From: Candidatus Hydrogenedentota bacterium
GTDB lineage: Bacteria; Hydrogenedentota; Hydrogenedentia; Hydrogenedentales; SLHB01
Reading direction: 5' to 3'
Length of the DNA: 64,000 bases
Assembly (NCBI GenBank): GCA_045863335.1
Contig: BTVY01000004.1
Location: forward strand, 1-64,000
The position numbers were made by a program, and so were the translations under genes. Below, in pieces: positions 4,750-64,000 of the stretch. The notes under the pieces are model-generated. The model had not been told where the DNA came from. It did no database searches and saw only the letters and a program-made list of their open reading frames with translations. The number at the start of each line of letters is the position of its first letter. Position 1 is the stretch's first letter.

Positions 4750-5589
4750 ATGCGACCCGTATTCCTAAGCATCTGCGTGGGCATGGCACTATTCTGTCTT
4801 GGTCTGCCGTGTGCCCATTCATCCAATGACAATGCCGAGCACCCTGCCCTTACGCAAGAGGAAATGGAAGAAGTTCGCAGTCGACTCGATCGAGTTACAG
4901 CAGGGGTATTCGCCGATGCAATCGCCAAAGACTATGAGTCCAAGGGTCTCAATATATCTCCGTTTCTGGCAACCATAGTTATCGACGAAAGCGAGAGTGT
5001 GTCGACGAGAACTCACGCGATATTCTTGCTTGGACAATTGGAGAAGTCTGCCTCTACGGGCGTTTTCATACAGGTTATCGAACCTCGTCTAAAGCAAGAT
5101 ATCGTGAAAGACGACCTCAGCTTGATTCGGTGTTCGATGATTGGGCTCGGGTGGCAAGGAGATCAGCGTGGATTGGAACTTCTCTTTCAAATGGCTTCAA
5201 AGGAGTTCTGGGCTCAGATTGCGCCCGATGGGGTTACATGCGCCGATTGCGACAACATTCCGGCGGGTGATGTGAGCACCTATCTGCGTAAGCAGGCTCT
5301 GTCAGCTCTTGCAGAATCGGGCACAGATGAAGCTATGAGGGCGTTCGCGACGGGCGAAGGGTTACCGGCGGACCTGAGTAGGAGCTTTCCCCATCGTCTA
5401 GACCTTGCCGTGTACCGCAAGTGCGACATAATGAGCATACCGGACAAACTTTCGAAGCTCGATCAGGATAAGCGTTCCCAATATTGGGATACCTGGTCAT
5501 GGATTGAGAAAAACTTCGGGTCGCGCGAAGAGATATACAAGAGGTTTGGAAATGAGTCCGGTGGTTACCAGTCGGCGCCAGAGGGCTAA
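4750..5589 (+). CDS. Secreted helical (HEAT-like) protein; orphan paralog of 53771-54619
   Basis: Signal peptide; long identical blocks with 53771-54619 (VFADAIAKDYESK, GLPADLSRSFPHRLD, RSQYWDTWSWI). Confidence 0.85.
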   Translation: MRPVFLSICVGMALFCLGLPCAHSSNDNAEHPALTQEEMEEVRSRLDRVTAGVFADAIAKDYESKGLNISPFLATIVIDESESVSTRTHAIFLLGQLEKSASTGVFIQVIEPRLKQDIVKDDLSLIRCSMIGLGWQGDQRGLELLFQMASKEFWAQIAPDGVTCADCDNIPAGDVSTYLRKQALSALAESGTDEAMRAFATGEGLPADLSRSFPHRLDLAVYRKCDIMSIPDKLSKLDQDKRSQYWDTWSWIEKNFGSREEIYKRFGNESGGYQSAPEG

Positions 5590-5687: not shown

Positions 5688-6467
5688 GTGAATATCGTCA
5701 GATCGCTGCACATTCAATTACTCTTCATTGCCTATTTCGGGGTAGTCGGCGTTGCGCATGCACAGCCGGCGTCACCTGAAGGGGCGGCAAAGAACGAGGC
5801 TGCCGATTGGATAGTCGATGGCCAACTGACGCCCAAGGGCAAGGCAGAGATAGATTTAATTCTCGAGAATAGGCTTGTAAACCTCGACGACCAGGCCTTG
5901 GTGAACTTGGTCAATAGGCATCCGGAAGCCGCTGTTGCGCAATATCTAATCAAAGCGGCAGATGATGCTAACAGGGATAGCGTGACGCGCCAACGCGCCA
6001 TGGCATGGCTCGCCTATACTCGGGATGATAGAGCAGAAGATTTCCTGCGGAGCTACGTCGAGAAACTCACTCCCCAAGAGGGGAAGGTCTTATCTTTTGC
6101 GGAGTACAATTTGCTCCATGCAGCGATCATATCGCAGGGAGCAATCGGGAGCGATTCTGCAATTGATTATCTCTTACAGATTGCGAGCAAGGACTTTTGG
6201 GACAGTAGAGTCATAACCTGCAGCGGGCTCCATGGCGATGCGGAAGATCTAGCGGTTCACATGCGAAAGGCGGCGCTTTGGGGGATAGTGAGGTCCGAAA
6301 CGGACCGTGCAATTGCCCTTTTTCCAAAGCACTCGAATCCTATGCCGGACCTGTTGAGCGACGAGGAAGCCGCGAGTCTTGCGCGCACGGCGAGGTTGCG
6401 TGCGCAGAAGATATACGGAAATCCGGATGCCAATAGGGAGCCATCGCAGAAAAAAGTGAAGAAGTGA
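5688..6467 (+). CDS. Secreted helical (HEAT-like) protein; orphan paralog of 55940-56734
   Basis: Shared VTRQRAMAWLAYT.DDRAEDFLRSYVE, HMRKAALWGIVRSET, EEAASLARTARLRAQK; GTG start after ggag. Confidence 0.85.
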   Translation: MNIVRSLHIQLLFIAYFGVVGVAHAQPASPEGAAKNEAADWIVDGQLTPKGKAEIDLILENRLVNLDDQALVNLVNRHPEAAVAQYLIKAADDANRDSVTRQRAMAWLAYTRDDRAEDFLRSYVEKLTPQEGKVLSFAEYNLLHAAIISQGAIGSDSAIDYLLQIASKDFWDSRVITCSGLHGDAEDLAVHMRKAALWGIVRSETDRAIALFPKHSNPMPDLLSDEEAASLARTARLRAQKIYGNPDANREPSQKKVKK

Positions 6468-8819: not shown

Positions 8820-9852
<1,033 letters not shown>

Positions 9853-9881
<29 letters not shown>

Positions 9882-26308: not shown

Positions 26309-26435
26309 CAGTGGACTTCGGGGACTTCACCTGGAGTCCTACCAGCCTCTTGCCAATCTCCCTCTGTCCGATAGAATGGAATCACCCCGGCAAGCATTAC
26401 CCCCAAAGTTCGAAGTCTGGCTCGATACGGGGCAC
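26309..26435. repeat. Array repeat R1 (GACTTC iterons + motif + internally deleted recombinase tail + att core)
   Basis: gtggacttcggggacttcacctgg...ttgccaatctccctctgtccgatagaatggaat-caccccggcaagcatt...aaagttcgaagtctggctcgatacggggcac. Confidence 0.9.
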
Positions 26436-32936: not shown

Positions 32937-33065
32937 GCTTCACATTATTCTCAGCTACCGCCTTCGACTATCACGTAGACTGTCCCATTGCATACGGCAC
33001 TGCTTTATATGCCCCCCGGGAAACATCCGTACAGCCCACACTAAACCGTAAATTGGTGTCGAAAC

Positions 33066-34136: not shown

Positions 34137-34810
34137 TGTATGAGCCCTCGGCGCCTACAACGATCAAAGTGCTCGAGAACGATTTCTGTCAGAACTTCCG
34201 GTTCTACGCCATCGGTATTCAGGACCAGTACATCTGGTACATTTTCTTGAAGAAGGCGGAGAAGGCTTAGGTCCCATTCTTCAAATACGGATTGGTCGTA
34301 CTCCAAGAACCTGTAATTCTCTACCTTGGTGGTGCGGCCATTCTCAAAGTCACTTCTATGGCGGAGGATTCTCACCTGGAATGGCGTTGTCAGAAAAGCA
34401 CATCCGCCGTAACAAACAAGCAAAGACCGGAACGCTTCAAAGAAGTTCGTCATAATCGTGTCAGAGTCGATGATGGCTTTTGCCCAGGCCCTGTAGTGAG
34501 AACTCACCTTTACAGTGGTGTTACCGTTCCGCTCGCAAAAAAGTATGCCGTCTACAAGCGGTCCGAGCAAATAAACACTGCGCTTCAGCGTTTTCTCTAA
34601 CCGCGAGGAGCGTCCAACCCCTGCAAGGTATGTCAGGCGGCAGTCAAGATACTGAAGCGGTGACCGAACAAGAGGACCAATGACAACTGAAATCGGTCGC
34701 ATGCACCGCTCGCCCAGCGCGCTCGCGAGATGCCGAGCGAGCGTCTTCTTTCCCGAGCAATCGAGCCCTTCTATTAGATACGGGCGGCAATTGCGACGAT
34801 GTAGCATCAT
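34133..34810 (-). CDS. Thymidylate-kinase-like P-loop protein
   Basis: LIEGLDCSGKKTLA Walker A. Confidence 0.65.
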   Translation of the reverse strand: MMLHRRNCRPYLIEGLDCSGKKTLARHLASALGERCMRPISVVIGPLVRSPLQYLDCRLTYLAGVGRSSRLEKTLKRSVYLLGPLVDGILFCERNGNTTVKVSSHYRAWAKAIIDSDTIMTNFFEAFRSLLVCYGGCAFLTTPFQVRILRHRSDFENGRTTKVENYRFLEYDQSVFEEWDLSLLRLLQENVPDVLVLNTDGVEPEVLTEIVLEHFDRCRRRGLIQ

Positions 34811-37549: not shown

Positions 37550-37801
37550 CAGTAGACTTCGAGACTTCAGGGACTTCACCCGGGGCCTGGTCTCCCCCTT
37601 GCCAATCTCCCCCTGTCCGATAGAATGGAATGGCCCATCGAGTCAGTCTGAAAAATCGTTTTCCTCTTGACCACCTTCCGGCAAAATGACGTTTTCCTCG
37701 GCAGTTGTACGGCAATGTTTGATCACTCCGGCAAGCATTACCTCCAAAGTTCGAAGTCTGCCTCGATACGGGTCACAATAAGCCCAAACTTCGAACTTTA
37801 G
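37550..37801. repeat. Array repeat R3 (complete; att with 12-bp inverted arms)
   Basis: Three GACTTC, conserved motif, open 43-codon recombinase tail, AAAGTTCGAAGT (37746-57) and ACTTCGAACTTT (37788-99). Confidence 0.92.
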
Positions 37802-39086: not shown

Positions 39087-39312
39087 CAGTAGACTTCCGG
39101 ACTTCGGGGACTTCACCTGGGGTCTACCCACCTCTTGCCAATCTCCCTCTGTCCGATAGAATGAAGTGGCCGATAGGATTAGTCTAAAAACTCCTCTTCC
39201 TCTTGACCATCCTTCGGTACCGAAGCAAAATCAGCCATGTGTGTACCGCAATATTCGACCACTCCGGCAAAGATTGAGTCCAAAGTTCGAAACCTGCCTC
39301 TATACGGGTCAC
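39087..39312. repeat. Array repeat R4 (complete, diverged tail)
   Basis: GACTTC x3, ttgccaatctccctctgtccgatagaatg, tail DPYRGRFRTLDSIFAGVVEYC...FLD*, ctgcctctatacgggtcac. Confidence 0.92.
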
Positions 39313-40200: not shown

Positions 40201-40268
40201 AGTAGACTTCAAGACTTCAGGGACTTCACCTGGGGCGTACCCGCCTTTGCTAATCCTCCTTTTATCCA
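40201..40268. repeat. Array repeat R5 (iteron half only)
   Basis: agtagacttcaagacttcagggacttcacctgggg plus a degenerate ttgctaatcctcctttatcc. Confidence 0.8.
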
Positions 40269-40620: not shown

Positions 40621-40718
40621 TTGCCCACAATACCTATCTTGTAATGACGCGGCACCTATTAGTTTAGATCAACTAAATGACTAGGTGCTTTTCTTTTTCT
40701 GTTTACGTTCAGTAATCA

Positions 40719-40899
40719 CTCTTGCCAATCTCCCCCTGTCCGATAGAATGGAATGGCCCATAGAGTCAGTCTGAAAAATAGTCTTCCTCTTGACCGCCTT
40801 CCGACACCATGTCCATATTTTCCACATTTGTACGGCAATGTTTGATCACCCCGGCAAGCATTGCCTCCAAAGTTCGAAGTCTGCCTCGATACGGGTCAC
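40719..40899. repeat. Array repeat R6 (native 3' end of recombinase 2 with att core)
   Basis: Closely matches R3; core aaagttcgaagtctgcctcgatacgggtcac at 40869-40899. Confidence 0.92.
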
Positions 40900-44012: not shown

Positions 44013-44049
44013 TGTACCCCTGCGAAGTCCCTGAAGTCCCGATGTCCAC
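44013..44049. repeat. Inverted copy of the GACTTC iteron cluster (possible origin)
   Basis: gtacccctgcgaagtccctgaagtcccgatgtccac resembles the reverse complement of R1/R3/R4/R5. Confidence 0.75.
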
Positions 44050-44147
44050 AGAAACTTGCCGGTGTAGGCAAAGCAAACACCCTTCGGAGTCGCTCATCTT
44101 GCGGTAAACTGGAAAGGCACAAAGGTCGAAATTATTCGCAAACAAAC

Positions 44148-48546: not shown

Positions 48547-48658
48547 CGATGCGCCATTCAGACCCTATTTGAGCCGTTCTCCGATCCTTCACTCTTCATG
48601 CTATTCTGTCACGGGTATGTACCGTTATGAGCCGAAGTGGCGGTTATGTGAGGATCAG

Positions 48659-50194
48659 TTGTTAGCACGAATCCAATCTTGCGTCATACTGGGGATCGAT
48701 GGGATTCCTCTGTCCGTCGAGGTGGACAATCATCCGGGATTGAACAAACTCACGATTGTGGGATTGCCCGATACCGCCGTGAAGGAAAGTCAGGAGCGGG
48801 TTACCTCAGCGATCAGAAACTCCGGGTTTCGAGTTCCGAGGGGGGTCACAGTCGTCAACCTTGCGCCCGCGGACATTCGGAAGGAAGGGAGTTCACTCGA
48901 TCTTCCCATTGCGTTGGGTATCTTAGCGGCCACGGAACAAATCAATGGAGAGCGAATCTTCGAATACTCCACCGTCGGTGAGCTTGCACTCGACGGCTCG
49001 GTCCGCACCGTTGCGGGTGTCCTTCCAATGACTCTGTCATCTCGCGAACAAGGTCTTCGGGGAATTCTGATCCCAAAAGTCAACGCCCAAGAGGCTGGCA
49101 TCGTGCCGGATGTAAACGCGATTCCTGTAGAAACACTAACCGATGCAGTTGGCTTCATGACCGGAACGAGCGACATCGAGCCGTTCGTGACCAGCCTTGA
49201 GGCAGTGCTCCAGAACGGGCGCACGCACGTTGCCGATTTCAGCGATGTGAAAGGTCAAGCCCACGTCAAACGGGCGCTCACCATTGCGGCCGCTGGCGGC
49301 CACAACGTCCTCATGGTCGGGCCTCCTGGTACCGGCAAGACTATGCTGGCATCCCGGCTACCCGGAATCCTACCGGATATGACGTTTGACGAAGCTTTGG
49401 AAACCACTCGTGTGTATAGCGTGGCGGGAGCTTTGGGCAACGGCAGGCACCTTGTCGCGCAACGGCCGTTCCGGGCACCCCATCAAACCGCGACCACAGT
49501 GGCGATTTCCGGCGGTGGACACGGACAGCGGCCCATGCCGGGAGAAGTTAGCATGGCACATAATGGCGTCCTGTTTTTGGACGAACTGCCCGAGTTCAAT
49601 CGCGCCGCGCTGGAAGTTTTGCGGCAGCCTCTCGAGGAAGGGTTGGTGCACATCAGGCGAGCGCTCTATTCGGTAACATTTCCGTCGCGTTTCTTGCTCG
49701 TAGTGGCGCTCAATTCATGTCCCTGTGGATATCGTTCGCATCCGACCAAGTCCTGTCGTTGCTCGGTCGGCGAGATTCAACGATACATGTCCCGTCTGTC
49801 TGGGCCATTGCTTGACCGTATCGATATCCATGTCGACGTTCCTACCTTGACATACGACGAGATCGCCAATCGAGCGCCAACGGGTCCAACAAGCGCGGAA
49901 GTAAGAACCACAGTGCAAGACGCCCGTGACCGCCAACGAATTCGCTACAAAGGTCGGATAGCCTGCAACGCCAGACTGGATTCCGGTGCGATCAGAGAAC
50001 ACTGTCCGGTAAGCAAGGAATCCGAGCGGCTGCTGGAAAACGTCATGGATGAATTCGGCCTTAGCGCACGTGCTTACGATAAGATCCTCAGGGTGGCGCG
50101 AACCATCGCCGACGTGAAAGGAGCAGAACACATCTCGGAAATGCACGTGGCGGAGGCGGTTCATTACAGAAGTATGGATCGGCACCTTCCTTGA
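48659..50194 (+). CDS. comM: Second, full-length comM/YifB homolog
   Basis: Co-linear with the host 5' copy, then CPCG, SGPLLDRID, SARAYDKILRVARTIAD; lower GC3 throughout. Confidence 0.93.
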   Translation: MLARIQSCVILGIDGIPLSVEVDNHPGLNKLTIVGLPDTAVKESQERVTSAIRNSGFRVPRGVTVVNLAPADIRKEGSSLDLPIALGILAATEQINGERIFEYSTVGELALDGSVRTVAGVLPMTLSSREQGLRGILIPKVNAQEAGIVPDVNAIPVETLTDAVGFMTGTSDIEPFVTSLEAVLQNGRTHVADFSDVKGQAHVKRALTIAAAGGHNVLMVGPPGTGKTMLASRLPGILPDMTFDEALETTRVYSVAGALGNGRHLVAQRPFRAPHQTATTVAISGGGHGQRPMPGEVSMAHNGVLFLDELPEFNRAALEVLRQPLEEGLVHIRRALYSVTFPSRFLLVVALNSCPCGYRSHPTKSCRCSVGEIQRYMSRLSGPLLDRIDIHVDVPTLTYDEIANRAPTGPTSAEVRTTVQDARDRQRIRYKGRIACNARLDSGAIREHCPVSKESERLLENVMDEFGLSARAYDKILRVARTIADVKGAEHISEMHVAEAVHYRSMDRHLP

Positions 50195-51257: not shown

Positions 51258-51368
51258 ATGTCCGGGAGCAGGAAAAATGTCTACGAGCCACCGAAAATCG
51301 AAACTTATGAGGAAAGTGACTTCGTTGCGGAGGCGGCTCTTGCTGACATAAGTTGCGACCAGCTGTAA
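51258..51368 (+). CDS. Putative RiPP-like precursor peptide MSGSRKNVYEPPKIETYEESDFVAEAALADISCDQL (not in ORF track)
   Basis: RBS ggagg at 51245; YxxP leader motif; directly upstream of the kinase gene. Confidence 0.7.
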   Translation: MSGSRKNVYEPPKIETYEESDFVAEAALADISCDQL

Positions 51369-52351
51369 AGGTGTTAGTGCCTTCGGTTGCGAATGAACTC
51401 TTCATAAGTGTCTTGGGTATAACGATTCTAATCAAGGGCACTAGGGGGAGTCCAGAGTTGAAACGCCTGCGGGAGCATTTTGCTCCCTATATTGAAGAGA
51501 AGGTCCCTGAGATAATTCACGCCAGCATCGGCGTCGAGCGAAACGGCGTAGATTCGGTGATCTCCTATGGTGATCGAGAGGCACATATAGAATTTCGTTC
51601 GCAGTGGCCGAATATTGAGCATTTTGTCCAAATGGTTTTAATTCAGCTTCGTCCGAAGTATTTCTTCCTTCATGCTGCGAGCATTTCTCAAGGCGACGAA
51701 TGTGTGCTGCTAATTGGCAGTACAGGCGCCGGGAAGTCAACGCTGGCAAGAACTCTCACTTCCTGGGGATTTACGATAGAATGCGAGGACGTAACGCCAA
51801 TAGACGTGAGAACTCAATCGGCCCATCGGTATCGTCCACAAATATGTTCCCAGAATGAAGATGCAACCCGACGTTCTGAGTCTTTCTGTGTGGACGCCGG
51901 TGGGTATGAATCACACCAGAAGCCGATCTCCCTGCTAATCTATTTGGGGAATTTGGACGATCTTTCTGTCATGGGACGCGAATTAACATTACGGACTCTG
52001 GAATCCAAATCAATTGGCGAACAATTTCGTGCGTGGCGAGTTCTCTGTCGACTTTGTCTTGGCGATGAGAATGCCGAACGAAATCCGTCAAGTACAGGTC
52101 CAGTTTTGATACCACGATTCTCGTTTAATGAGGCCCTGACAATGCGGAAGCTGACTCCGTCCACTGCGGTAAGAGTATTCTCAAAACACTTGCTTTATCC
52201 CGCACCTGACATTGGAGAAGTGATTCGCCAGTTCAGCCCAGTACTCGCTCGCTTGCCAATGTTTAACATAATTCACGGAAGCCCTGCGCAGCGGGCAGAG
52301 AGTGTAATTAAGTTATTCAATGAGCGGGCGAAATCCGCTTCCCTTGCCTAG
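51353..52351 (+). CDS. HPr-kinase-related P-loop kinase
   Basis: FLHAAS.......LL.G.TGAGKSTL....L...GF....ED. Confidence 0.8.
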   Translation: MRPAVKVLVPSVANELFISVLGITILIKGTRGSPELKRLREHFAPYIEEKVPEIIHASIGVERNGVDSVISYGDREAHIEFRSQWPNIEHFVQMVLIQLRPKYFFLHAASISQGDECVLLIGSTGAGKSTLARTLTSWGFTIECEDVTPIDVRTQSAHRYRPQICSQNEDATRRSESFCVDAGGYESHQKPISLLIYLGNLDDLSVMGRELTLRTLESKSIGEQFRAWRVLCRLCLGDENAERNPSSTGPVLIPRFSFNEALTMRKLTPSTAVRVFSKHLLYPAPDIGEVIRQFSPVLARLPMFNIIHGSPAQRAESVIKLFNERAKSASLA

Positions 52352-52418
52352 AGAAAGCGAATACGTTGTGACGGGGTGTCGGGGTGGGCGTAGATTAATA
52401 ACACTTGGGGAGAGAACG

Positions 52419-53585
52419 ATGAGAGACCTGGTGCAGAATCTTTGTTCGGCCTCTTTGGCATTTATTCTCATATCGACCATTTGCCTAGCTCAAGCTCCCA
52501 CGGACCGCCTTGTAGAGACAGGTTGTCTCAGTGGAACCGTTCCTGCTAACTACCCCGCGAAATCACAGTCCGAAACCAACAATAATAAGCCAATCCTCAT
52601 TGAAGGTTTAATCAATGGCGAGATATTCGTGTGTGCAGGGAAGATTTTTGAAGTGACCGCAAGCGGTGGTAGCGATTGTGATCTGAAACAGGGCAGCGGG
52701 TGTTCTGGCTGTTCCGGCATGCGGTGCGCTGAGAAATGGGACAATTTCAACGCCAACTACGGTTGGAGCGGCAGTGGTCTCGTTGACCAAGCGTACGGTG
52801 TTTGGGAATCAAAACACTTAGTTGAGGCTCCCGTGGATTGGGGGGCAAGCACAACGATCACGGTAACGCGAGAAGAATGTACTATCAAATCCGGCGAGAC
52901 TGCTGCAAACAAGACTTGTACTCTAAAGATAACTGCTACTGAGCCTTCGCGCAATTCATTGACGGTCTGTGCGCATACATCCTTGGGTTACAGTATGAGC
53001 ACGGCACAGCAGCTGATGGATGATGCAGCTAAAGAAGTCTATTTGCTCGACGAAGATAGCAATTCCGGTACTGAGGATATTCACTGTTGTACTGGCTTCA
53101 CGGCGAGTGGAAGCCTTGTAACATTTACTGACAATAATGTGTCTTCGGCCGACACCGTGGAAGATGGAACGTTTGACGGAATCTCGGATGAAGATACATA
53201 TAGAGATATGGTTGAAGACCAAGACGCGAATGGTGACTGGTATGGTATAACCTGGAATAATGAGAGTAAGTACATGAAGATAGTTGTTGTGGACGAGATC
53301 CTGTGGACTCGAACCTTGGGGAATATCCCGCAGAATAATCGTCCTGGTTTCTATTTGCCGGCGAGACACAAACTCTACTACGCGGTCAACGCCAACGCGA
53401 AGGTGTGGGCCCATGAATATGGGCACTACGCGGGACTCGCAGATTTGTACGACGCGCAAGGTCCGCTGCAGGGTTATGAAAATAACTTTATGGCGACACT
53501 CACTGCTGGCGGAGTGACCACAGTGAATGACCCAGATTTGGGTGCCGGTACAAACCAGTGTACAAAATTGACGAACGCAAATTAG
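52419..53585 (+). CDS. Secreted Cys-rich protein with C-terminal zincin motif (variant 1)
   Basis: Signal peptide; WAHEYGHYAGLADLY...NNFM. Confidence 0.8.
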   Translation: MRDLVQNLCSASLAFILISTICLAQAPTDRLVETGCLSGTVPANYPAKSQSETNNNKPILIEGLINGEIFVCAGKIFEVTASGGSDCDLKQGSGCSGCSGMRCAEKWDNFNANYGWSGSGLVDQAYGVWESKHLVEAPVDWGASTTITVTREECTIKSGETAANKTCTLKITATEPSRNSLTVCAHTSLGYSMSTAQQLMDDAAKEVYLLDEDSNSGTEDIHCCTGFTASGSLVTFTDNNVSSADTVEDGTFDGISDEDTYRDMVEDQDANGDWYGITWNNESKYMKIVVVDEILWTRTLGNIPQNNRPGFYLPARHKLYYAVNANAKVWAHEYGHYAGLADLYDAQGPLQGYENNFMATLTAGGVTTVNDPDLGAGTNQCTKLTNAN

Positions 53586-53770
53586 AATTCCTGCGGAATT
53601 AGATCACCGTCGCGCAGTCGTGATGTCTGTTGAGTGGAGTCGGTAGCGGGCATATATTCGTTTGCATATGAGAGTTGAAACCAGACGAGCCTGTACGCCT
53701 ACGAAGTTCGGTACATGGCAGGAGCTTCGTAAACGGCTATAGGCAACTCCTAGTGTGGAGGGCATGTAAA

Positions 53771-54619
53771 ATGAAATTCATTACAAGAATATCTGTTTGT
53801 ATGACTGTATTGCCGTTCGCGGTCGGTTTTTCCCATGCCCAGCCAGTGGATACTAATAGTAGTAGTGAGCACTTAGCCCTCACCCAACAGGAGAGGGATG
53901 AAGTTCGCAGTAGCCTCGACCGGGTTACGGCAGAGGTATTCGCGGATGCAATCGCCAAGGATTATGAGTCCAAGAATTTAAACATATCTCCATTCCTGGA
54001 AACCATAGTTCTTGACGAGAGCGAGAGTGTATCGACTAGAACTCAGGCAATATTCTTGCTCGGACAATTGGAAGAGAATAGCTCTACGGACGTATTTATA
54101 GACATTATCGATTCACGACTGAAGCAAGAAATGATGAAGGATGACATCGAGTTGATTAGGTGTTCAATGATTGCACTCGGCTGGCAAGGAGACAAGCGTG
54201 CATTAGAGCTTCTCTTTAAGTTGGCTTCAAAGGAGTTTTGGGCTCAGGTTACGCCCGATGGTATCGCATGCGCCGATTGCGACACTATTCAGGAGGGTAA
54301 TGTGATCACCTATTTACGCAAACAGGCCCTGTCGGCTCTTGCAGGATCGGGGACTGATGAAGCGATAAAGGCATTCGCGACGGGCGAGGGGTTACCGGCG
54401 GACCTAAGCAGAAGCTTTCCCCATCGTCTAGACATTGCTGTTTACCGTAAGTGCGACATAATCGCCATACCGGACAAGCTTTCGAAGCTCGATCAGGATG
54501 AGCGTTCCCAATATTGGGATACCTGGTCATGGATTCAGAAAGAATTCGGATCGCGCGAAGAAATTTATCAGAGGTTTAGGAACGAATCCGGTCAAGCCCC
54601 GTCGGAGCCGGAAGGCTAG
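53771..54619 (+). CDS. Secreted HEAT-like partner of variant 1
   Basis: Signal peptide; paralog of 4750-5589. Confidence 0.85.
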   Translation: MKFITRISVCMTVLPFAVGFSHAQPVDTNSSSEHLALTQQERDEVRSSLDRVTAEVFADAIAKDYESKNLNISPFLETIVLDESESVSTRTQAIFLLGQLEENSSTDVFIDIIDSRLKQEMMKDDIELIRCSMIALGWQGDKRALELLFKLASKEFWAQVTPDGIACADCDTIQEGNVITYLRKQALSALAGSGTDEAIKAFATGEGLPADLSRSFPHRLDIAVYRKCDIIAIPDKLSKLDQDERSQYWDTWSWIQKEFGSREEIYQRFRNESGQAPSEPEG

Positions 54620-54723
54620 AAGACTCACGAACGAAGACCCAGAGTTCCTTGCCTAGAGAAAGCGAATACGTTGTGACGGGGTGTCGGGGTGGGCGTAGAT
54701 TAATAACACTTGGGGAGAGAACG

Positions 54724-55848
54724 ATGAGAGACCTGGTGCAGAATCTTTGTTCGGCCTCTTTGGCATTTATTCTCATATCGACCATTTGCCTAGCTCAAGC
54801 TCCCACGGACCGCCTTGTAGAGACAGGTTGTCTCAGTGGAACCGTTCCTGCTAACTACCCCGCGAAATCACAGTCCGAAACCAACAATAATAAGCCAATC
54901 CTCATTGAAGGTTTAATCAATGGCGAGATATTCGTGTGTGCAGGGAAGATTTTTGAAGTGACCGCAAGCGGTGGTAGCGATTGTGATCTGAAACAGGGCA
55001 GCGGGTGTTCTGGCTGTTCCGGCATGCGGTGCGCTGAGAAATGGGACAATTTCAACGCCAACTACGGTTGGAGCGGCAGTGGTCTCGTTGACCAAGCGTA
55101 CGGTGTTTGGGAATCAAAACACTTAGTTGAGGCTCCCGTGGATTGGGGGGCAAGCACAACGATCACGGTAACGCGAGAAGAATGTACTATCAAATCCGGC
55201 GAGACTGCTGCAAACAAGACTTGTACTCTAAAGATAACTGCTACTGAGCCTTCGCGAGACGCGATCACAGTTTCGAAGCACACGTCAGGAAGCATTAACC
55301 CGAATATACAAATCTTAACGGCGCAACAAACCAAAGAAGTATTGCTGAAGGACGACGACACTCTAGCGCTTACGGCGGACAACCACTGCTGCAAAGGCTT
55401 CAAGCATTCGGCAACTTACATCTTTGATGACAGCGACGTACACTCTTCCCTGACAGGTTTTACTTCAATCGATACTCAGGCTAAGCACAATGCAATTAAA
55501 GGATCGTGGGCCGACGGTAGCAAGAAGAAACGATACATAATGGTGGATAGTTACACGTTTGACTACAATAATAATGTGCCTACGCAGACGCAGCAGCGCA
55601 GCTATACAACTGCGAATCATGTATACATGAACATGGCTAACGCTACTGATTGGACATGGATTCACGAATGGGGACACGAGGCTGGCGATTTGGCGGACCT
55701 CTACTGCAGAACGCCTGGCTCATCAGCGTGGTGCCAGAATGAGGGCGACCCAAACCCTGCCTATCCCAACAACTGGATGAACATTCACAACGGGAAATTT
55801 GTGGGCACCGTCTCGCCAGACGGCGATCAATGTGCCGAGCTCCCGTAG
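54724..55848 (+). CDS. Secreted Cys-rich protein with C-terminal zincin motif (variant 2)
   Basis: Same N-terminus as variant 1; WIHEWGHEAGDLADLY...NNWM. Confidence 0.8.
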   Translation: MRDLVQNLCSASLAFILISTICLAQAPTDRLVETGCLSGTVPANYPAKSQSETNNNKPILIEGLINGEIFVCAGKIFEVTASGGSDCDLKQGSGCSGCSGMRCAEKWDNFNANYGWSGSGLVDQAYGVWESKHLVEAPVDWGASTTITVTREECTIKSGETAANKTCTLKITATEPSRDAITVSKHTSGSINPNIQILTAQQTKEVLLKDDDTLALTADNHCCKGFKHSATYIFDDSDVHSSLTGFTSIDTQAKHNAIKGSWADGSKKKRYIMVDSYTFDYNNNVPTQTQQRSYTTANHVYMNMANATDWTWIHEWGHEAGDLADLYCRTPGSSAWCQNEGDPNPAYPNNWMNIHNGKFVGTVSPDGDQCAELP

Positions 55849-55939
55849 TTGCGGCTTAAGTAAAAGGCCAGCAAGCAGGTCTTGTCTGGCTCCTTTCACC
55901 AGAAGTAGCCAGTAGACTCACAAAAGAGGAGGCGTCCCA

Positions 55940-56734
55940 ATGTTAACGATAAGGCCGCAGCATTTTCAGTTACTCCTCATTACTTATTTCGGCGTATTCG
56001 CCGTTGTACATGCTCAGTCGGCGGCACCTGAAGGGGGAGCCAATAACGAAGTCGTCGATTTGATAGTAGGTAACGAATTGACAGTCAAGGGAAAGGCAAA
56101 GATTGACTCGATTCTTGAGAATAGGCTTGTAAATTTTGACGATCAAATGATGGTGAATCTTGTAGAAATGTATCCAGAAACCGCTGTGGCGGAATATCTA
56201 ATCGAAGTGGCAGATGATAGTAATCGGCACGCGGTCACGCGCCAGCGCGCCATGGCATGGCTCGCCTACACGAAAGATGATCGAGCTGAAGACTTCCTGC
56301 GGAGCTATGTTGAACGACTCACCAACCTAGAGAAGAAGGATTTAGACTTCGTGGAGTTTAATCTGCTCCACGCAGCGATAATGTCGCAGGGATCAATTGG
56401 GAGCAATTCTTCGATTGACTATCTTTTACAAATATCCAGCAAGGACTTTTGGGAAAGGAAAACTATAAGCTGCAATTGGCTAAATATGGACGCGGAAGGT
56501 ATAGAAACTCATATGCGAAAGGCTGCGCTTTGGGGTATAGTCAGATCCGAAACAAGCCGCGCAGTTGCACTATTCCCAAGCGATTCCAATCCAATGCCAG
56601 GCCTGCTCAGCGAAGAGGAAGCCGCCAGTTTAGCCCGTACCGCGAGGTTACGTGCGCAGAAAGTATACGTCGATCCGGAAGCTCAAAGAGAGGCATCTCA
56701 ACAGTCAGAACCCTCGAACATCCAAGGAGAATAG
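55940..56734 (+). CDS. Secreted HEAT-like partner of variant 2
   Basis: RBS ggagg; signal peptide; paralog of 5688-6467. Confidence 0.85.
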   Translation: MLTIRPQHFQLLLITYFGVFAVVHAQSAAPEGGANNEVVDLIVGNELTVKGKAKIDSILENRLVNFDDQMMVNLVEMYPETAVAEYLIEVADDSNRHAVTRQRAMAWLAYTKDDRAEDFLRSYVERLTNLEKKDLDFVEFNLLHAAIMSQGSIGSNSSIDYLLQISSKDFWERKTISCNWLNMDAEGIETHMRKAALWGIVRSETSRAVALFPSDSNPMPGLLSEEEAASLARTARLRAQKVYVDPEAQREASQQSEPSNIQGE

Positions 56735-56737
56735 TTC

Positions 56738-58447
56738 GTGGTACGAATAGGAACGGCGGTGGGTTATATTACCACCTGCGCAGGGTGGTTACGGGCGCCG
56801 TCGATACTAGGCATGGCTCCACTGGTTGTGATGGGCTGTTATAGATCTGACGTTTACCATCAGGAGCAGAGTCACCGTATCGAAATTGAGAAAGCGGAGG
56901 GAGAGTCGCAGACTATAGTTGGACATGAAGACTTCCTTAGTTCCCGCGAAGCAAGGACTGTAGTAGAGTGCATCCGAAACGGCAACGCTCCCCAATCAAA
57001 TTGTTACGCACAACTGGAGCGTCGTGGCGTCAGAACCGAGTCGATTCTAGCGATTCTAGAGCAGCTTGAAGTCGAGGATTTTGAGAAACATGCAAGCAGT
57101 CTCGAAGCGTTACTCGCACTAATCGAGCAATCAGAAGACAGCGTTTCGATCAGTTTAAGCGCACTTGAAGCGTTGTCAGTACGGGACATAGAAATATACG
57201 AGTGTTGGGTTGAGCTTTGCGAAAACTCGGGGAATATCGAAACGAAATTCGCGGCTCTGTACCAGAAGTATGTATATCACCAACTTCGCGAGCAACAAAG
57301 TGAAGTAGCCCGCAGCGCATTAGATTTATGGATATTTTGTCCCAAGTTAGTGCAAGAAAAGAACTTAGGCCTTCGACTTCAGGGGTCCCTTGAAAGCGCG
57401 GGGTACATTCTTGAATCCGATCTTCTGGGTCGAGAATTGGACCCCCAAGCAGTTGCCACGTACATAAAGACTGAATTGTGGCGAAAGAAAGTGCCAGGAA
57501 AGACATCCGGTAGTTACGAAGGTGATGCTATTGGCTTTTCGACACGTTTACCACAATTCTCCTTCCTAGACAGTGCGTTACACGCGGATTTCTGGCCAGT
57601 TATGAATTCGGTCTGTGAGGCGTCCAGGGCGGGAGATTGGCAATTAGTGCTGGAAGGTATAGCGACATGCAATTCGGTCTTGCGGCATCATCTCGTTGAA
57701 GGCCAAATGTCGATACATGACTTGCGCGTCGTGCGTGCAGCGGCGCTAGTTATCTACGCCGCAATGGATAAACTAGTTCTTGCGCATGAGCTAGGCCAAT
57801 CGCATAATATCACTCCGTTCGCGCTTGCATTGGAAAAGAGTTTGTGCACGCAACTAATCTGCGAACTTGCGATCCGCGAGTCCGAACTTAATCTCGCTGC
57901 CAACAGGGGACAAGCCTTAGGAAGCATCGAATGGTTGTTGGATTTTGCCAGAACTGAAGAATTACCCGCGATAACTCTAGAAGCGTATGGATTTGTTGTC
58001 GAGAAATTCCCAGGTACAGAGAATGCACTGGATGCGCAGTGCCTTCGGGGGGAATTGCTAGAGAAGGAATTCGGAAACCACCGCTCAGCAGTTAAAGATT
58101 ATTGGGCAGTTTTAGAGAGGGATTTATCGCCAGACAAGCGAGAGTATATAACTTTCCGACTCGCAAAGGCATTATTGCTCGGGATTAGGGATCCTCTGGC
58201 AGCTCAGGAGGTCCTCGTAAATTATCTGGAGGATCACCCTAACGGCGCCCATGCTGTGGGTTTGATGTACTTGCTGGCTTTGGCAGAATACGAGACGGGT
58301 TTGGAACCGGATGCGATCGAACGGATGCGGCGAATCGCAACGGGGCCGGATGGGCAGGACGAGAACGTAAGAAGTGCGGCCGAGAACTGGATCTCTCGAC
58401 TAAATGGAGAAAGCGGTGTGTCGCTACATGATACGCAGGCCAATTAG
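56738..58447 (+). CDS. TPR-containing putative lipoprotein
   Basis: VVMGC lipobox-like motif; C-terminal TPR-type repeats (VVEKFPGT, YLEDHPNG). Confidence 0.7.
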   Translation: MVRIGTAVGYITTCAGWLRAPSILGMAPLVVMGCYRSDVYHQEQSHRIEIEKAEGESQTIVGHEDFLSSREARTVVECIRNGNAPQSNCYAQLERRGVRTESILAILEQLEVEDFEKHASSLEALLALIEQSEDSVSISLSALEALSVRDIEIYECWVELCENSGNIETKFAALYQKYVYHQLREQQSEVARSALDLWIFCPKLVQEKNLGLRLQGSLESAGYILESDLLGRELDPQAVATYIKTELWRKKVPGKTSGSYEGDAIGFSTRLPQFSFLDSALHADFWPVMNSVCEASRAGDWQLVLEGIATCNSVLRHHLVEGQMSIHDLRVVRAAALVIYAAMDKLVLAHELGQSHNITPFALALEKSLCTQLICELAIRESELNLAANRGQALGSIEWLLDFARTEELPAITLEAYGFVVEKFPGTENALDAQCLRGELLEKEFGNHRSAVKDYWAVLERDLSPDKREYITFRLAKALLLGIRDPLAAQEVLVNYLEDHPNGAHAVGLMYLLALAEYETGLEPDAIERMRRIATGPDGQDENVRSAAENWISRLNGESGVSLHDTQAN

Positions 58448-58620: not shown

Positions 58621-60003
58621 GTGTTAACTGTGCAAAAAAGGAATAAGGGCTGGCCTACAAGGATGGTGTTGGGGTTCTCCACGGCGATGCCAAATAGAGT
58701 ATTGGGGCACGGGCGGCTTAAGACCTGGACAAGATCCATCCTGCTGGCTGTTCACTCAGTAGCTCTTATGTCGAGAGTTTGGGCTGCTGATCCTGTCGCA
58801 ATCGAAGTTGGCACATGGAGCGCTGAATACGGCCGGGAATGGTTGACTACCGAGTTGACGGCTTTCCAGGAAGCGTATTCAGATGTTTCGGTATCGACTG
58901 TCTCACTTTTTGACCCCTCTCGATACAAAAATCCCGTTGAGAAATTTCCTCGGCTAGCTGAGAATGTAATCGCAATAGACAGTGAGTCTGGCTACGAAAC
59001 GGTGTATTTCGTGGAACGTGACATGCTAGTTCCAATTGAAGATTTCTTGCCTGACCCCGACTTCGACTTTGATAGCTTTTACCCGAAGGTATTCGACAGC
59101 GTCCGATATCAGGGAAAGACTTGGGGTGTTCCTTGGACGTACTGGACCGCGTTCTTGGTTATAGACGAGCAGTTGTTCAATGAATCCAAGATTCCTTTGC
59201 CTCAATCTTGGAAGGACGTACACGAAGCTGCACGGAAGCTAACTAAGGATCGTGATGGCGACGGACAAGTGGATCAATGGGGAATGAGGCTAACTTTCTT
59301 TGACGAAAGTACGCCGTACGCCGCGGTAAGCAAAGTTTTGCAAGATGGTGGACATGTAATGAAGAACGGAATGTTCGACATTAACCATCCTGCATTTATT
59401 GACGCCTTCGAGTTCTTTGGGGAACTCGCAAATGACAGATCAGCCTCAAAACTCGATGCAAGGCAGCCCGAAGAGTTCTTGCAGGACCAGGACGTACGAT
59501 ACGCAATGTTCATTATACCTAGCTTCGATTTGCCACAAATAGAGAATCGGACTGACTTGCGAGTTATGCCGCTGCCGACCGATAAGGAGAAGGTGTGCAT
59601 CGCGGAGTGCAGACGATATTTTGCAATAAGAAAATCTACTCCACAGCAAGAAATGGCTTCTTGGAAGTTTGTTAAGTGGATGACACGAGAAGGGATATCC
59701 CTGCCTACGAATTGGGACGTGTTTCCTTGCAGAAGTAACATTACAGGACGCGAGGATTTTCGGCTCCAATCGAAGAGCAAAATCCAGGGATTGGCAGAAG
59801 CGCTTACTACAAACTCAATTGCAGTTGACCCCGGAGATCCGGTGTACGGCAGGAGGGATGCCTTAATATACATAGTTTCGGGGTTGGCGGGTCCAATGGT
59901 TGAGGGTCAGCCGTTGTCCCCTATTGTTGAGAAAATTGAGATCCAAGCAAATACCATGATACGGCAGATTCTACCTGATATCGCCAGAGATAGTCCGCGG
60001 TAA
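58621..60003 (+). CDS. Extracellular solute-binding protein (sugar ABC type), no permease adjacent
   Basis: YQGKTWGVPW, PQSW.DV..AA.KLT.D.DGDG.VDQWG, ASWKFVKWM. Confidence 0.85.
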   Translation: MLTVQKRNKGWPTRMVLGFSTAMPNRVLGHGRLKTWTRSILLAVHSVALMSRVWAADPVAIEVGTWSAEYGREWLTTELTAFQEAYSDVSVSTVSLFDPSRYKNPVEKFPRLAENVIAIDSESGYETVYFVERDMLVPIEDFLPDPDFDFDSFYPKVFDSVRYQGKTWGVPWTYWTAFLVIDEQLFNESKIPLPQSWKDVHEAARKLTKDRDGDGQVDQWGMRLTFFDESTPYAAVSKVLQDGGHVMKNGMFDINHPAFIDAFEFFGELANDRSASKLDARQPEEFLQDQDVRYAMFIIPSFDLPQIENRTDLRVMPLPTDKEKVCIAECRRYFAIRKSTPQQEMASWKFVKWMTREGISLPTNWDVFPCRSNITGREDFRLQSKSKIQGLAEALTTNSIAVDPGDPVYGRRDALIYIVSGLAGPMVEGQPLSPIVEKIEIQANTMIRQILPDIARDSPR

Positions 60004-60151: not shown

Positions 60152-61195
60152 ATGATGGCCGTAGCGGTGTTTCTCCTAAGTGGACTTGTAAGTCAGTACA
60201 ACCACCCACAAGATTTGTTGAAGGAATTGCAGAGACAATACGTATTACCAGGGGGGCTTGTTGAAGCACTTGGTGAGGGGTCCCTGGACCAAGTTGAACA
60301 AGAATATATTGATCAGTACTCTCAGGCTATTAGCGAGGGAGACGGCGTTGCGGTTCTGGCTTCGTTGAATTCAATTCTTAGCCGAGGGAGTATGACTGAG
60401 GAGCTACGTTCATACTTGCAGCTCGAGAAAGCGGTATGGGAGCTTGGTGTCGAGCAGTATGGCGAGGCTATTGAGACTATGTCTAGTTTGCGGAGTATGT
60501 TGCCGAATGAAGGAATGGAACAGTGCCTTCTAGATTTAGCCGAATTAAAGACTCTCTCATCAGCATACGAGTTAATGGATGTTCCTTTTCAATCTGTCTT
60601 AACCAAATATGAAGAAGCGTTTATAACCCATGACCCTTTCAACGTTTATATGGCCAACGCCTATTATGATTGCGCGAGACTAGCATACAACGGCGGAACG
60701 AAAAATCAGGACACTACATTACTAAACCTGGCCCAACAACGACTTTCGGAATGTGAAGGAATTATCGTCGCAATCGGCACAGATAATGATGAATTGATGA
60801 GAAAGGAGTACGCGAGCCTGGTAGCTCTGGGCCGTAACATAAAGACAATGTCGGCAAAATTGGATCTCGCGGTGCGGAGAGCCGAGGAAGGGAAGATATC
60901 CAGAGTTTCAACCTCTGATTACGCCAAAGGAATTGAGATTCCGAAACCCGAGTTTTCCCAGTTCCGAGGGAGTTCCGAGTCGATAACACCTAGCGAAGCG
61001 GAGTACTCTGCGTCTGTGAAGAACTCGGAAGTTTCCAATATCGCGGTGATCGAGCAACCGTCCGACGAGGCCAGAGAGTCATCGCGTAGGAGTGAGACAC
61101 ATTCGGGTCATTTGTATCTCATTGGAGCGTTTTCGTGCGGGCTACTGGCTGTAGTTGTCTATCGATGGAAGTTTTCGCGAGCAGCCGGAAAATAA
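60152..61195 (+). CDS. Exported helical protein with C-terminal membrane anchor
   Basis: Hydrophobic N-terminus; C-terminal TM plus basic tail (LLAVVVYRWKFSRAAGK). Confidence 0.7.
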   Translation: MMAVAVFLLSGLVSQYNHPQDLLKELQRQYVLPGGLVEALGEGSLDQVEQEYIDQYSQAISEGDGVAVLASLNSILSRGSMTEELRSYLQLEKAVWELGVEQYGEAIETMSSLRSMLPNEGMEQCLLDLAELKTLSSAYELMDVPFQSVLTKYEEAFITHDPFNVYMANAYYDCARLAYNGGTKNQDTTLLNLAQQRLSECEGIIVAIGTDNDELMRKEYASLVALGRNIKTMSAKLDLAVRRAEEGKISRVSTSDYAKGIEIPKPEFSQFRGSSESITPSEAEYSASVKNSEVSNIAVIEQPSDEARESSRRSETHSGHLYLIGAFSCGLLAVVVYRWKFSRAAGK

Positions 61196-61278: not shown

Positions 61279-62691
61279 ATGCATGATTTCGTACGGACAA
61301 GGTGTATGACCTGTACTATAAATAGGAAAACTGCAAAGGTTGACGCGTGCGTCGCAGCGACGATGCTTTCATGGCCTAAGCCATATCTAGCGTCGGATTC
61401 AATTGAATCCCTGCAAATTGGGGGCGTTTTGAATTCCTCCCGATTCCGTGACTTCGTTATTGCGCATCGAATCTACCCTCTGGTTTTACGTAACCTCTCT
61501 CACCTAGGACGAGGTTCTATAGAAGTCCACCATCGACAACTTGCAGGAGTACTCTATAAGGTGCTTCTGCGGGATTGGTGCCCGACTTTTGCTATACTGC
61601 GAGATACCTACATCGCAACTAGGGCTATATTCGAAAGCCTATCACAACCGTTTACCATATTGAGGGGGTTGCATTTGGCTTCGCTGTACTACGAGGAGCC
61701 ACACGATCGCGTCTTTGGGGATATAGACATACTATGCATGGACAAGCCGAACATGGTTACGCTTAGCGCGTTCGCAGACGCTGGTTTTCTTCCATTAAGA
61801 CTGGCAGATTTTCGTGCGGCCCAAGAAAAGTACGTCTGCCAGATAGAACTAAGGCATAGGATGACCGGCGTACGGCTGGACATCAACTGGAAATTGACCG
61901 GCAACGGACAAAATGGTGGTTTGAGTTTCGATACGACCAAAGTGTGGGAGCGCGCCCAAGGGAAATCGGCAGTCGAATACGAACTTTCCCCAACAGACAC
62001 GCTGTTAGATGTCGCTAGGCACATCGCACAAGGCCATGAATACGATGGTTATACTGTGCAGGCGTGTGCTGACATTTGTCGCATAATGATCCGAGATGGC
62101 GAAAGAATCGATTGGGACTACTTTGAGAGCCAAGTACGACTCGCAAAATTTGAGCGAGCTGCTGCGTTTTTTCTTGATTACTATGATCGTAATTATGCCT
62201 TAAATGAACGAATGCCGAGATTCAGCGAGCGTTTTCTCGGATTTCGAAACTTCGGAGTGCCCCTCTACGAGCGAAGATATATGCGCCACTTAATTACTGT
62301 TCAATCATGGAATTTCCGAAGACGCTCAAACAGTGTCGGCCGACTTTTCATAGCAAATGTCTGTCTAATTGTGAAGTACTTTTCGACCACAAATGGTGCT
62401 GACCTCGTGAGACTAGGCCGCATAACGGTTATTTGGCCGCCAAGCGGTATTGTGATTTTACTCGATGACGAAGCGTTTACGGGTGCACTTTACATGAAGA
62501 GGATGCGTGTCTACGTAATGCTTTGCACATACCTATTTCCGGGGCTCGTGTTTGGGGTGTCTACCAGATTAGTTTGCATGATTTTGTCCCTACTGCATCC
62601 TCGCAATCGCCGCAAGCAAGCGTTCTTGATGGGCAAAATAGAGAGTGGCCTCGCACGTAGCGAATGTGGTGAAAAGGAGAAAATGGTGTGA
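61279..62691 (+). CDS. Nucleotidyltransferase-family (NTP_transf_5-like) protein
   Basis: LRG..LA..YY..P..R..GDIDIL, LDINW. Confidence 0.8.
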   Translation: MHDFVRTRCMTCTINRKTAKVDACVAATMLSWPKPYLASDSIESLQIGGVLNSSRFRDFVIAHRIYPLVLRNLSHLGRGSIEVHHRQLAGVLYKVLLRDWCPTFAILRDTYIATRAIFESLSQPFTILRGLHLASLYYEEPHDRVFGDIDILCMDKPNMVTLSAFADAGFLPLRLADFRAAQEKYVCQIELRHRMTGVRLDINWKLTGNGQNGGLSFDTTKVWERAQGKSAVEYELSPTDTLLDVARHIAQGHEYDGYTVQACADICRIMIRDGERIDWDYFESQVRLAKFERAAAFFLDYYDRNYALNERMPRFSERFLGFRNFGVPLYERRYMRHLITVQSWNFRRRSNSVGRLFIANVCLIVKYFSTTNGADLVRLGRITVIWPPSGIVILLDDEAFTGALYMKRMRVYVMLCTYLFPGLVFGVSTRLVCMILSLLHPRNRRKQAFLMGKIESGLARSECGEKEKMV

Positions 62692-63725
62692 AAAGTTGTT
62701 TTCGACTTCAGTCGATTGGTGTTCTCGCATTGGCATTTTCCTTTGGCGTTTTTTCACTACTTGAGCTCGAAGCGCATGCGGAGGCGATAGTTCACGTTTT
62801 GGAACCAAACGTCGAAATCGAAGAATGGCCACTTGAGATTTCGTTTGAGCATCAGTTCGTAGTCGAGAATAGAGGGGATGAAGATTTAGTGCTGGAAGTT
62901 GGATCAAAGAGTTGTGGCTGTATTACATCCTTTCTAACGTTAGAGCATATTAGTCCTGGCGCTGTTGGAAAAGTCGGGATACGGACCGATAATCGTTCGG
63001 TTGCAAATCGGCCCTACCTAGAAAGTATGACCGTAGTACTAGAGACAAATGATCCGGACCATCCAACTATTACCCTTTCGGCGAGGGCCAATATTGTGCC
63101 GGTCGCGTATGTTGTAGAAAAGACGGTTAACCTTGGAGAACTGGAAGTGGGAAGTATCGGGACCGGAAAGTTTCTGCTTCGGCACCGAGTACCAATGGAG
63201 ATTGTTGATATTGAGAATTCCTCCCCTGCGCTCACGGTAAGCAATGTAAGAAGCTTTCCTGATGGAGAGTGGAGAATAAAGGAGTTCTCAGTCGAGTTTA
63301 TGCAGCCGGAAGTTGCCGCATGGGTGAGTGAGACAACTATGCTAACAACGGACAACGTCCTGATTCCCGTGATAGAGGTAGATATTGAGTCGAAGTCAAA
63401 GTATGTACTTAGGGCGGATCCTGGGGTGGTGAGTTTCGGCGGAGTATTGCTTGGGGATTCTGCATTGCGAACCGTAATACTGAATTCTGAGGACGAAGGC
63501 ATCTCAGAGCCGGATCATCTTGCCTTAGACAATCCGGACATTGAGGGAAAGATCGTCAAGTCGAATGCTCGGTCGGAATACGAATTGGAGATTCTCGTAC
63601 ATCCTACGTCGCTTTGCGGGGTTCGCCGTGGTTTCGTGCGAGTTTATTCATCTGATGCTCAGCTTTTGAGTCTCGTTGGATATATCTACAGCTGCCCAAG
63701 AAGACTAAACTTGGAGGCGAAATGA
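62688..63725 (+). CDS. DUF1573-domain exported protein
   Basis: F.V.N.GDEDL......SCGC......I.PG..G; TNDPD.P. Confidence 0.85.
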   Translation: MKSCFRLQSIGVLALAFSFGVFSLLELEAHAEAIVHVLEPNVEIEEWPLEISFEHQFVVENRGDEDLVLEVGSKSCGCITSFLTLEHISPGAVGKVGIRTDNRSVANRPYLESMTVVLETNDPDHPTITLSARANIVPVAYVVEKTVNLGELEVGSIGTGKFLLRHRVPMEIVDIENSSPALTVSNVRSFPDGEWRIKEFSVEFMQPEVAAWVSETTMLTTDNVLIPVIEVDIESKSKYVLRADPGVVSFGGVLLGDSALRTVILNSEDEGISEPDHLALDNPDIEGKIVKSNARSEYELEILVHPTSLCGVRRGFVRVYSSDAQLLSLVGYIYSCPRRLNLEAK

Positions 63726-63771: not shown

Positions 63772-64000
63772 ATGTCGAATATGAATAAGGAAATGCTTCT
63801 ACCGAAGTGGGTGCCCGGAATTGTCAAACACGATTTAGGTTCTGAGTCATTTCTCCATGATGAGCAGAATGAGCGCATCCACGTGCTTAATTGCACTGCG
63901 AGTCTTATCTGGGATCATTGCGATGGTCATACTTCCTATCAAGAGATGCTTGGTATTTTACTGAGAGAGTTTTCGGATGTTACGGTTGATGTGCTACGAA
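63772..64000 (+). CDS. PqqD-family (RiPP recognition element) protein, runs off the window
   Basis: My translation: ...IHVLNCTASLIWDHCDGHTS..EM...L...F; RBS aaggag. Confidence 0.8.
   Translation, partial: MSNMNKEMLLPKWVPGIVKHDLGSESFLHDEQNERIHVLNCTASLIWDHCDGHTSYQEMLGILLREFSDVTVDVLR

Follow-up and report, generated by a model that had tools for sequence, protein, structure and literature searches.

We describe here two neighbouring gene pairs, A1-B1 and A2-B2, in a 64,000-nucleotide stretch of contig BTVY01000004.1 of a Candidatus Hydrogenedentota bacterium (assembly GCA_045863335.1); this whole stretch is called the window below. The A genes encode putative exported metallopeptidases and the B genes putative exported helical proteins. 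Both A genes begin with the same 610-bp block, which ends at a domain border and was apparently exchanged by recent recombination, and the peptidase domain behind this block is inherited together with the B gene next to it. We regard it as moderately probable that such pairs are protease/cognate-inhibitor cassettes, in which an exported protease is matched by a cognate exported inhibitor of the HEAT type, peptidase domain and B form one module, and the 5' block can be exchanged at the domain border.

The four genes follow one another on the forward strand in the order A1-B1-A2-B2, and the coordinates of the open reading frames (ORFs; Table 1) bear out this layout as it had been read in a first-pass annotation of the sequence. 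The same annotation had claimed an exact 5' block common to both A genes. Comparison of the window with itself indeed gave a 610-bp direct repeat without a single mismatch, the only pair of long exact repeats in these 64 kb, which contain no N. The repeat spans 77 bp 5' of the ATG and codons 1-178, the last codon being the Arg of TATEPSR. Past its end the ungapped identity of A1 and A2 drops abruptly from 30/30 to 6-13/30. A split after TATEPSR into different peptidase domains had been proposed; the abrupt divergence and the motifs HExGH..G.LADLY and NxM are there, but the ‘different domains’ turned out to be homologous, divergent paralogues. They are related along their full length, with HCCxGF, the zinc motif, NNxM and a terminal QC in common, at 35-37% identity and with saturated synonymous sites (proportion of synonymous differences, pS, 0.86). 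Judged by these measures, the two C-termini are old paralogues of one undescribed metzincin family and not unrelated toxins. A scan for promoters and terminators gave counts no higher than chance.

Metzincins are defined by the zinc motif HExxHxxGxx(H/D) and a downstream Met-turn. A1 fits this motif exactly, A2 carries one extra residue before the third ligand, and NxM is conserved; by motif the A proteins would be metzincins, and proteolysis is their expected activity. They share motif and Met-turn with the metzincins of M6, M10, M12 and M66 (InhA, matrix metalloproteinases (MMPs), serralysin, myroilysin, snapalysin), whereas the HCCxG motif and a Cys-rich immunoglobulin (Ig)-like N-terminal domain (N-domain) are peculiar to the A family. 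A word-based search returned one relative, P0002, from a metagenome-assembled genome of Candidatus Hydrogenedentes. A profile search of 1.84 billion representatives returned 21 matches, namely A1, P0002, 18 members or fragments (P0011-P0028) and a TIG-repeat protein (P0029); RHS fusions were not among them. The family (19 aligned sequences, to which P0018 and P0026 were then added) comprises about 20 clusters, the nearest in Hydrogenedentota, with the architecture signal peptide, Cys-rich Ig-like domain, peptidase. Its complete members have the Cys-rich N-domain and the peptidase domain in common. HExxH is kept in 20 of the 22 proteins examined (the exceptions being the truncated P0022 and P0029), followed by an NxM-type Met-turn in nearly all complete members. 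Matches of the family profile to PDB sequences were weak (best E 0.002), and the 60 listed of 73 were mostly MMPs, myroilysin, serralysins, snapalysin, InhA and ADAMs. A1 and A2 remained below every curated family cut-off, with 18.8 of 22 bits for Peptidase_M6 in Pfam and 21 of 110.8 bits in NCBIfam, at the zinc motif; among 20 family members P0020 alone touches such a cut-off (Reprolysin_4, 22.3 versus 22). An Atlas model of A1 residues about 45-178 gave weak matches to PKD/Ig-like domains (TM 0.46-0.52), which would put the end of this domain at the end of the repeat. An Atlas feature search with the N-domain (best 0.77) was uninformative, and an AlphaFold model of A1 from a 3-sequence alignment (pLDDT 32.5) was not used.

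B1 and B2 are diverged members of one family, as had been suggested (alignment E 3e-8, 24% identity, with the motifs quoted for them present). The B1 model is a confident all-helical solenoid (pLDDT 79.8), and its nearest solved structures in a Foldseek search were alphaRep/HEAT binders (best E 1.8e-3). Pfam HEAT_2 is above its cut-off in three B proteins of related loci (L002_Ba, L003_Ba and L003_Bb) and below it in those of the window. The B proteins might thus be secreted HEAT-like solenoids, as far as the model goes. A and B proteins alike begin with a hydrophobic peak and an AxA-like site, the only basis for the signal peptides named here, which is consistent with Sec export of both. A complex prediction for A1 176-388, Zn and B1 30-275 with alignments returned a score of 0.05 and a mark of 0.32, which is not evidence either way.

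In the pairwise comparison of 15 full-length family members (fragments P0012, P0016, P0019 and P0022 excluded, P0018 and P0026 outside that alignment) the N-domains of A1 and A2 are 100% identical and exceed the identity of their C-terminal domains by 65 points, while N-domain identity is at most 44% and this gap at most 19 points in the remaining 104 of 105 pairs. The approximately unbiased (AU) test rejected a sister relationship of the two peptidase domains (p=0.0027) as well as a clade of B1-type and B2-type proteins (p=0.0055). Because the peptidase domains are rejected as sisters, the identical 5' block is, to judge from the trees, the product of a recent recombination that ended at the domain border. 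A recent duplication of the whole gene with fast C-terminal divergence was also considered and is ruled out by the saturated synonymous sites and the AU test on the peptidase domains. Copying was likely directed from A1 to A2, since in the N-domain tree the domain common to both falls with the A1-type protein P0002 (94/90) and since the first repeat copy begins within the final 10 bp of the ORF that precedes A1. Four other members, P0011, P0012, P0017 and P0023, resemble each other most in their N-domains (38-47%), yet a clade of their C-terminal domains is rejected (p=8e-8), which suggests that N- and C-terminal parts were shuffled earlier in the A family as well; these groups were named after the first tree had been inspected, and their N-domain group is not resolved in the N-domain tree.

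A GTDB scan with one narrow 8-residue pattern, in which 5 of 70 matches were confirmed, yielded four related loci (L001-L004). The gene order is A-B-C in L001, A-B-C-DUF1573-A-B-C in L002, where solute-binding and TPR-like genes are divergent, and A-B-B in L003. All stand-alone A genes of these three loci (4/4) and both window A genes (2/2) have a B gene directly 3' of them; a hidden Markov model (HMM) of B built without the L001-L003 genes found these at E 1.6e-39 to 6.5e-9 among 438 ORFs. The second A gene of L002 (7789-8909) has a 5' frame break and intact B and C neighbours, which might be a sequencing error or an inactivation with B kept. The peptidase domain of A1 is sister to that of P0002 (100/99), and the B protein after P0002 matches B1 best (146 bits versus 62 for B2) and has the B1 tail. 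That of A2 groups with P0012 (90/89), and the B protein after P0012 groups with B2 (98/96). L001_B has no resolved sister relationship with the B1 group in the B tree. The type of B thus appears to follow the type of the peptidase domain and not that of the N-domain. Peptidase domain and B are a heritable module; the trees do not show binding. The idea that B is a dedicated partner holds in this sense, B being the co-inherited neighbour of the peptidase domain in the window and in related loci. L004 (7860-9185, a Phycisphaerae ORF) encodes a peptidase without the Ig-like domain and with a long C-terminal extension. This extension looks helical and aligns by eye, but a fusion of A and B is unproven (B profile E 0.4 among 438 ORFs, hhalign probability 1%); its best Atlas match (0.89) is an unnamed 123-member cluster, which is a lead only.

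A second B tandem, B1'-B2', had gone unnoticed in the earlier annotation. It lies 49 kb from the A-B cluster and has no A remnant. Compared with B1 and B2, the ratio of non-synonymous to synonymous substitution rates (dN/dS) is 0.18-0.24 at dS 0.6-1.1, and the G+C content at third codon positions (GC3) is 0.55-0.59, which is island-like, versus 0.81-0.85 in four host-like genes. The tandem is under purifying selection and resembles orphan immunity genes, where immunity as the role of B is itself something that we infer. Its spacer is colinear with DNA downstream of B1 and upstream of B2: 8 of 2000 shuffles reach the score, with the junction chosen by eye after inspection, and 231, 26 and 422 of 2000 when the spacer parts are scored alone. 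Given this colinearity the order B1-then-B2 would be old, favouring either conversion within an old array or an old array of B genes into which A2 was inserted. Just 5' of the tandem there is a Y1 (IS200-like) transposase (3884-4381). For three further B proteins, two B1-type and one B2-type, the longest contig is 3,485 bases each, and together they need 2,481 coding bases; if all three sit on a single contig of that length, it would have no room for an A gene.

In the cassette account favoured here, A would be a Sec-exported zinc endopeptidase of the metzincin type with an N-terminal Ig-like binding domain, and B a HEAT-repeat protein that is exported along with it and binds specifically the peptidase domain of the gene directly before it. 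B would most likely be an inhibitor that protects the periplasm and surface of the producer. The exchangeable 5' block would carry expression signals, signal peptide and Ig-like domain, and by recombination the A1 block may recently have taken the place of the A2 block or given rise to it. The exchange would end at the domain border because crossovers beyond it would give a chimeric catalytic domain that fits neither B. Spare B genes are kept without A, which is what one would expect of a defence against the proteases of neighbouring cells. That the protease itself attacks other cells would be compatible with the inhibitor reading, and we think it rather doubtful.

Several observations weigh against this account. 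Linkage by itself would make the trees of adjacent genes agree, and the basis of the agreement here is six A-B pairs; in L004 no B gene was found. A clade of the peptidase domains of A1, A2 and P0002 was not rejected (p=0.08), and a clade of the shared A1/A2 N-domain with L002_Ab was only marginally rejected (p=0.05); because of these two values the donor lineage is not fixed. A long exact repeat or identical block was not seen in any of the four related loci, and in L002 the identity between the first and second A gene is 41% over the comparable N-terminal part. Of the earlier claim that the system diversifies by recombination at the constant block, the recent exchange and the N/C discordance elsewhere stand, and among these loci the identical-block state is confined to the window. 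The survey of homologues for C-terminal swaps that had been proposed gave a similarly divided outcome, as N- and C-terminal histories disagree and all C-termini belong to one peptidase family. Furthermore, the conserved C, solute-binding and DUF1573 genes that accompany A-B fit a machinery of the envelope, where B could serve as adaptor or chaperone.

A role outside conflict is suggested mainly by this conserved set of envelope-type neighbours. A might mature or remodel a surface or matrix system to which C, DUF1573, solute-binding and TPR proteins also belong, B might be a folding chaperone or substrate adaptor, and the 610-bp identity might be ordinary gene conversion between tandem paralogues. 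The order A-B-C recurs in L001 and twice in L002, with a relative of C in the window, solute-binding and DUF1573 genes are common to the window and L002, glycosyltransferase and FemAB-like genes adjoin L002, and the peptidase of L004 carries its long fused extension. Such a machine leaves the extra diverged B copies without A (the window orphans, A-B-B in L003) and the repeated N/C discordance unexplained, and we consider it somewhat improbable. The identity of the block could also have arisen in assembly, either by the collapse of similar 5' regions into a single consensus or by the joining of strain variants into a tandem that does not exist. An identity of 100% over 610 bp is a typical outcome of bulge removal, and protein searches returned A1, B1, B2 and the orphans but not A2. 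Assembly collapse, however, requires copies that are nearly identical beforehand. The N-domains of the family, at most 44-47% identical, are too unlike for that, all four ORFs are intact, and the order B1-to-B2 recurs in the orphan tandem with its colinear spacer. An artefact could account for the exact match, but neither for near-identity as such nor for the pairing of A with B; as the whole explanation it is very unlikely.

The first-pass annotation had compared the locus with the constant-variable-immunity layout of polymorphic toxins. Taken in full, this would make A an antibacterial toxin acting in the periplasm or at the surface, B its immunity protein and the orphan arrays polyimmunity, with strains swapping C-terminal domain and B in an arms race. 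Signal peptide, lineage-restricted N-domain, variable C-terminus and downstream cognate gene are the layout of MafB/MafI, as described in the part of the source at hand (PMC4287609). The orphan tandem under selection and the three B proteins on contigs possibly too short for an A gene point the same way, and HerA-SIR2 and TIR defence-like genes occur in the same low-GC region as the locus. The comparison is right in that the A proteins are 100% identical in N and 35% in C, with a cognate gene downstream and orphan B genes. It goes too far as regards the tips: every C-terminus found belongs to one peptidase family, and stand-alone C-terminal cassettes, which count against a true polymorphic toxin when missing, were not found in the window or the loci (0/148 short candidates). 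Unrelated toxin tips were looked for among the 21 profile matches, and every complete one with the N-domain bears the same metzincin (P0022 is truncated and P0029 is the TIG-repeat protein). The A family is also small for such a system, with these 21 matches in all; no delivery genes were recognised, and the conserved neighbours are of the envelope type. There were no plasmid or phage matches for A1 and no PADLOC matches for A1, A2, B1 or B2. Because unrelated tips and orphan C-terminal cassettes, two defining marks of polymorphic toxins in the sections available of PMC3482391, were both missing, we did not file A-B there, and a full toxin system seems rather unlikely to us. A-B would be something narrower. 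As a cognate module that has orphan partners and has recently recombined exactly at a domain border, it is better supported than the first-pass annotation could show.

Compared with known systems, A/B is like MafB/MafI in layout and probably like the KLIKK peptidase/potempin pairs in function. In the excerpts of the work on Neisseria that we could use (PMC4287609, PMC4436062), MafB/MafI likewise have a Sec signal peptide, a lineage-restricted conserved N-domain, a sharp constant/variable junction, a downstream cognate gene and an island location. They differ, in the same excerpts, by unrelated nuclease or deaminase C-termini, many orphan C-terminal cassettes and variable small MafI (PMC4287609, PMC4436062), whereas in A/B all peptidases are of one family and all B proteins, which have signal peptides, of another; the A genes are two and full-length, and B alone occurs as an orphan. 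The KLIKK peptidases of Tannerella forsythia are likewise secreted and linked to specific exported partners, with orphan partner-like ORFs, and their identical 5' segments (there the signal peptides) among otherwise divergent paralogues resemble those of A1 and A2, according to the accessible portion of PMC9890683. Potempins are given there as beta-barrel lipoproteins of 98-132 aa encoded upstream, and the KLIKK enzymes as belonging to several classes (PMC9890683, in part), whereas B is helical, HEAT-like and about 250 aa long, lies downstream, and had no lipobox that we noticed. HExxH toxins at C-termini (Tox-MPTase1-5) and HEAT immunity proteins (Imm-HEAT) both occur in polymorphic systems, and the homogeneous polyimmunity loci described there resemble the orphan B tandem; however, in the portion of the source covered, Tox-MPTases have RHS N-termini and no listed immunity protein, and Imm-HEAT is listed with Tox-REase-7 (PMC3482391). 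Our literature searches, with most subscription journals outside their scope, gave no description of such an A/B system, neither protein family is covered by a curated model in the collections used, and the family lists in the supplement of PMC3482391 may bear on its novelty.

If B inhibits A, it would be a natural metallopeptidase inhibitor built of HEAT repeats, with several diverged cognate pairs for studies of specificity. A1 and A2 are in any case a natural domain-swap experiment, with a common N-domain and differing catalytic domains. If A were antibacterial, polymorphic conflict systems would extend to an uncultured phylum and to variation within one enzyme family. As a speculative extension, which we think unlikely, Hydrogenedentota might possess an all-protease polymorphic conflict system. 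The constant Ig-like domain would aim a swappable metzincin at the envelopes of neighbours, secreted HEAT-repeat inhibitors of a class not yet described would give allele-specific immunity, orphan B arrays would store immunity to lost alleles, and the 610-bp repeats would allow modules to be switched, lost and gained. A crossover between the repeats would then remove a 2,305-bp unit of the A1 peptidase domain and B1 and put A2-B2 first.

Table 1. Positions of the A-B cluster, the orphan B genes and neighbouring genes in the window (counted from its first letter; assignments are predictions).
Feature	Position	Strand	Remarks
Repeat copy 1 (610 bp)	52342..52951	+	Last 10 bp of upstream kinase ORF, spacer, ribosome-binding site, A1 codons 1-178 (predicted signal peptide and Cys-rich Ig-like domain)
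Repeat copy 2, same sequence as copy 1	54647..55256	+	Self-comparison
A1, putative secreted two-domain metzincin, 388 aa	52419..53585	+	HEYGHYAGLAD and NFM Met-turn; Peptidase_M6 E 0.001, under cut-off
B1, putative secreted HEAT-like helical solenoid, 282 aa, apparent cognate of A1 peptidase domain	53771..54619	+	All-helical model
A2, N-domain as in A1, peptidase domain of other lineage, 374 aa	54724..55848	+	HEWGHEAGDLAD and NWM
B2, putative secreted HEAT-like protein, 264 aa, apparent cognate of A2 peptidase domain	55940..56734	+	Family match, B tree
B1', orphan B1-type gene, no A gene nearby	4750..5589	+	73% aa to B1; window comparison
B2', orphan B2-type gene, directly 3' of B1'	5688..6467	+	68-70% aa to B2; window comparison
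HprK-related kinase-like ORF	51353..52351	+	Repeat copy 1 starts with its final 10 bp; TIGR04352 E 6e-7, far below cut-off
TPR-like exported protein, directly 3' of B2	56738..58447	+	L002 TPR-like gene equal in length, homology not detected
Solute-binding protein	58621..60003	+	Also beside L002 A-B-C cluster; E 6e-55
C, exported helical protein with C-terminal hydrophobic segment (peak residue 326)	60152..61195	+	Relative of gene 3' of B in L001/L002; HMM E 3.8e-4 among 969 ORFs
NTP_transf_5 nucleotidyltransferase	61279-62691		
DUF1573 Ig-like protein	62688..63725	+	Also within L002 cluster; E 4e-7
PqqD	63772-64000		

The DNA around the A-B cluster is low in GC. The cluster is located to the right of a comM gene interrupted by a serine recombinase, and is bracketed by the HprK-related kinase, nucleotidyltransferase and PqqD genes, a trio familiar from lasso-peptide and exosortase-type loci. 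The interrupted comM (8820-9881) is host-like (GC3 0.85) and is cut off by the serine recombinase ORF. A second, complete comM follows 40 kb on (48569-50194), with 70% aa; its composition is foreign, at a GC3 of about 0.6 over the whole gene. Since no 3' part of the host comM was seen in the window, the island may extend past 64 kb. Between the two genes there are a SIR2 and HerA pair with strong PADLOC matches (12369-15510, reverse strand), a CAP12-type TIR protein with an unknown C-terminal part (24161-25354, reverse), an operon of Multiubiquitin, DUF6791-ThiF and DUF6527 (26706-28817, forward) and an IrrE/CapP-like metallopeptidase (30417-31265, forward). A low-GC operon on the reverse strand (32445-37442) holds NUDIX, two glycosyltransferases and unknown genes. 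Finally, a family of dispersed 40-180 bp repeats, some of them inverted (26303-26435, 37551-37776, 39088-39312, 40201-40267, 40686-40899 and 44017-44053), flanks small gene units near a helix-turn-helix transposase-like fragment (25552-25989), and these repeats may be ends of mobile elements.

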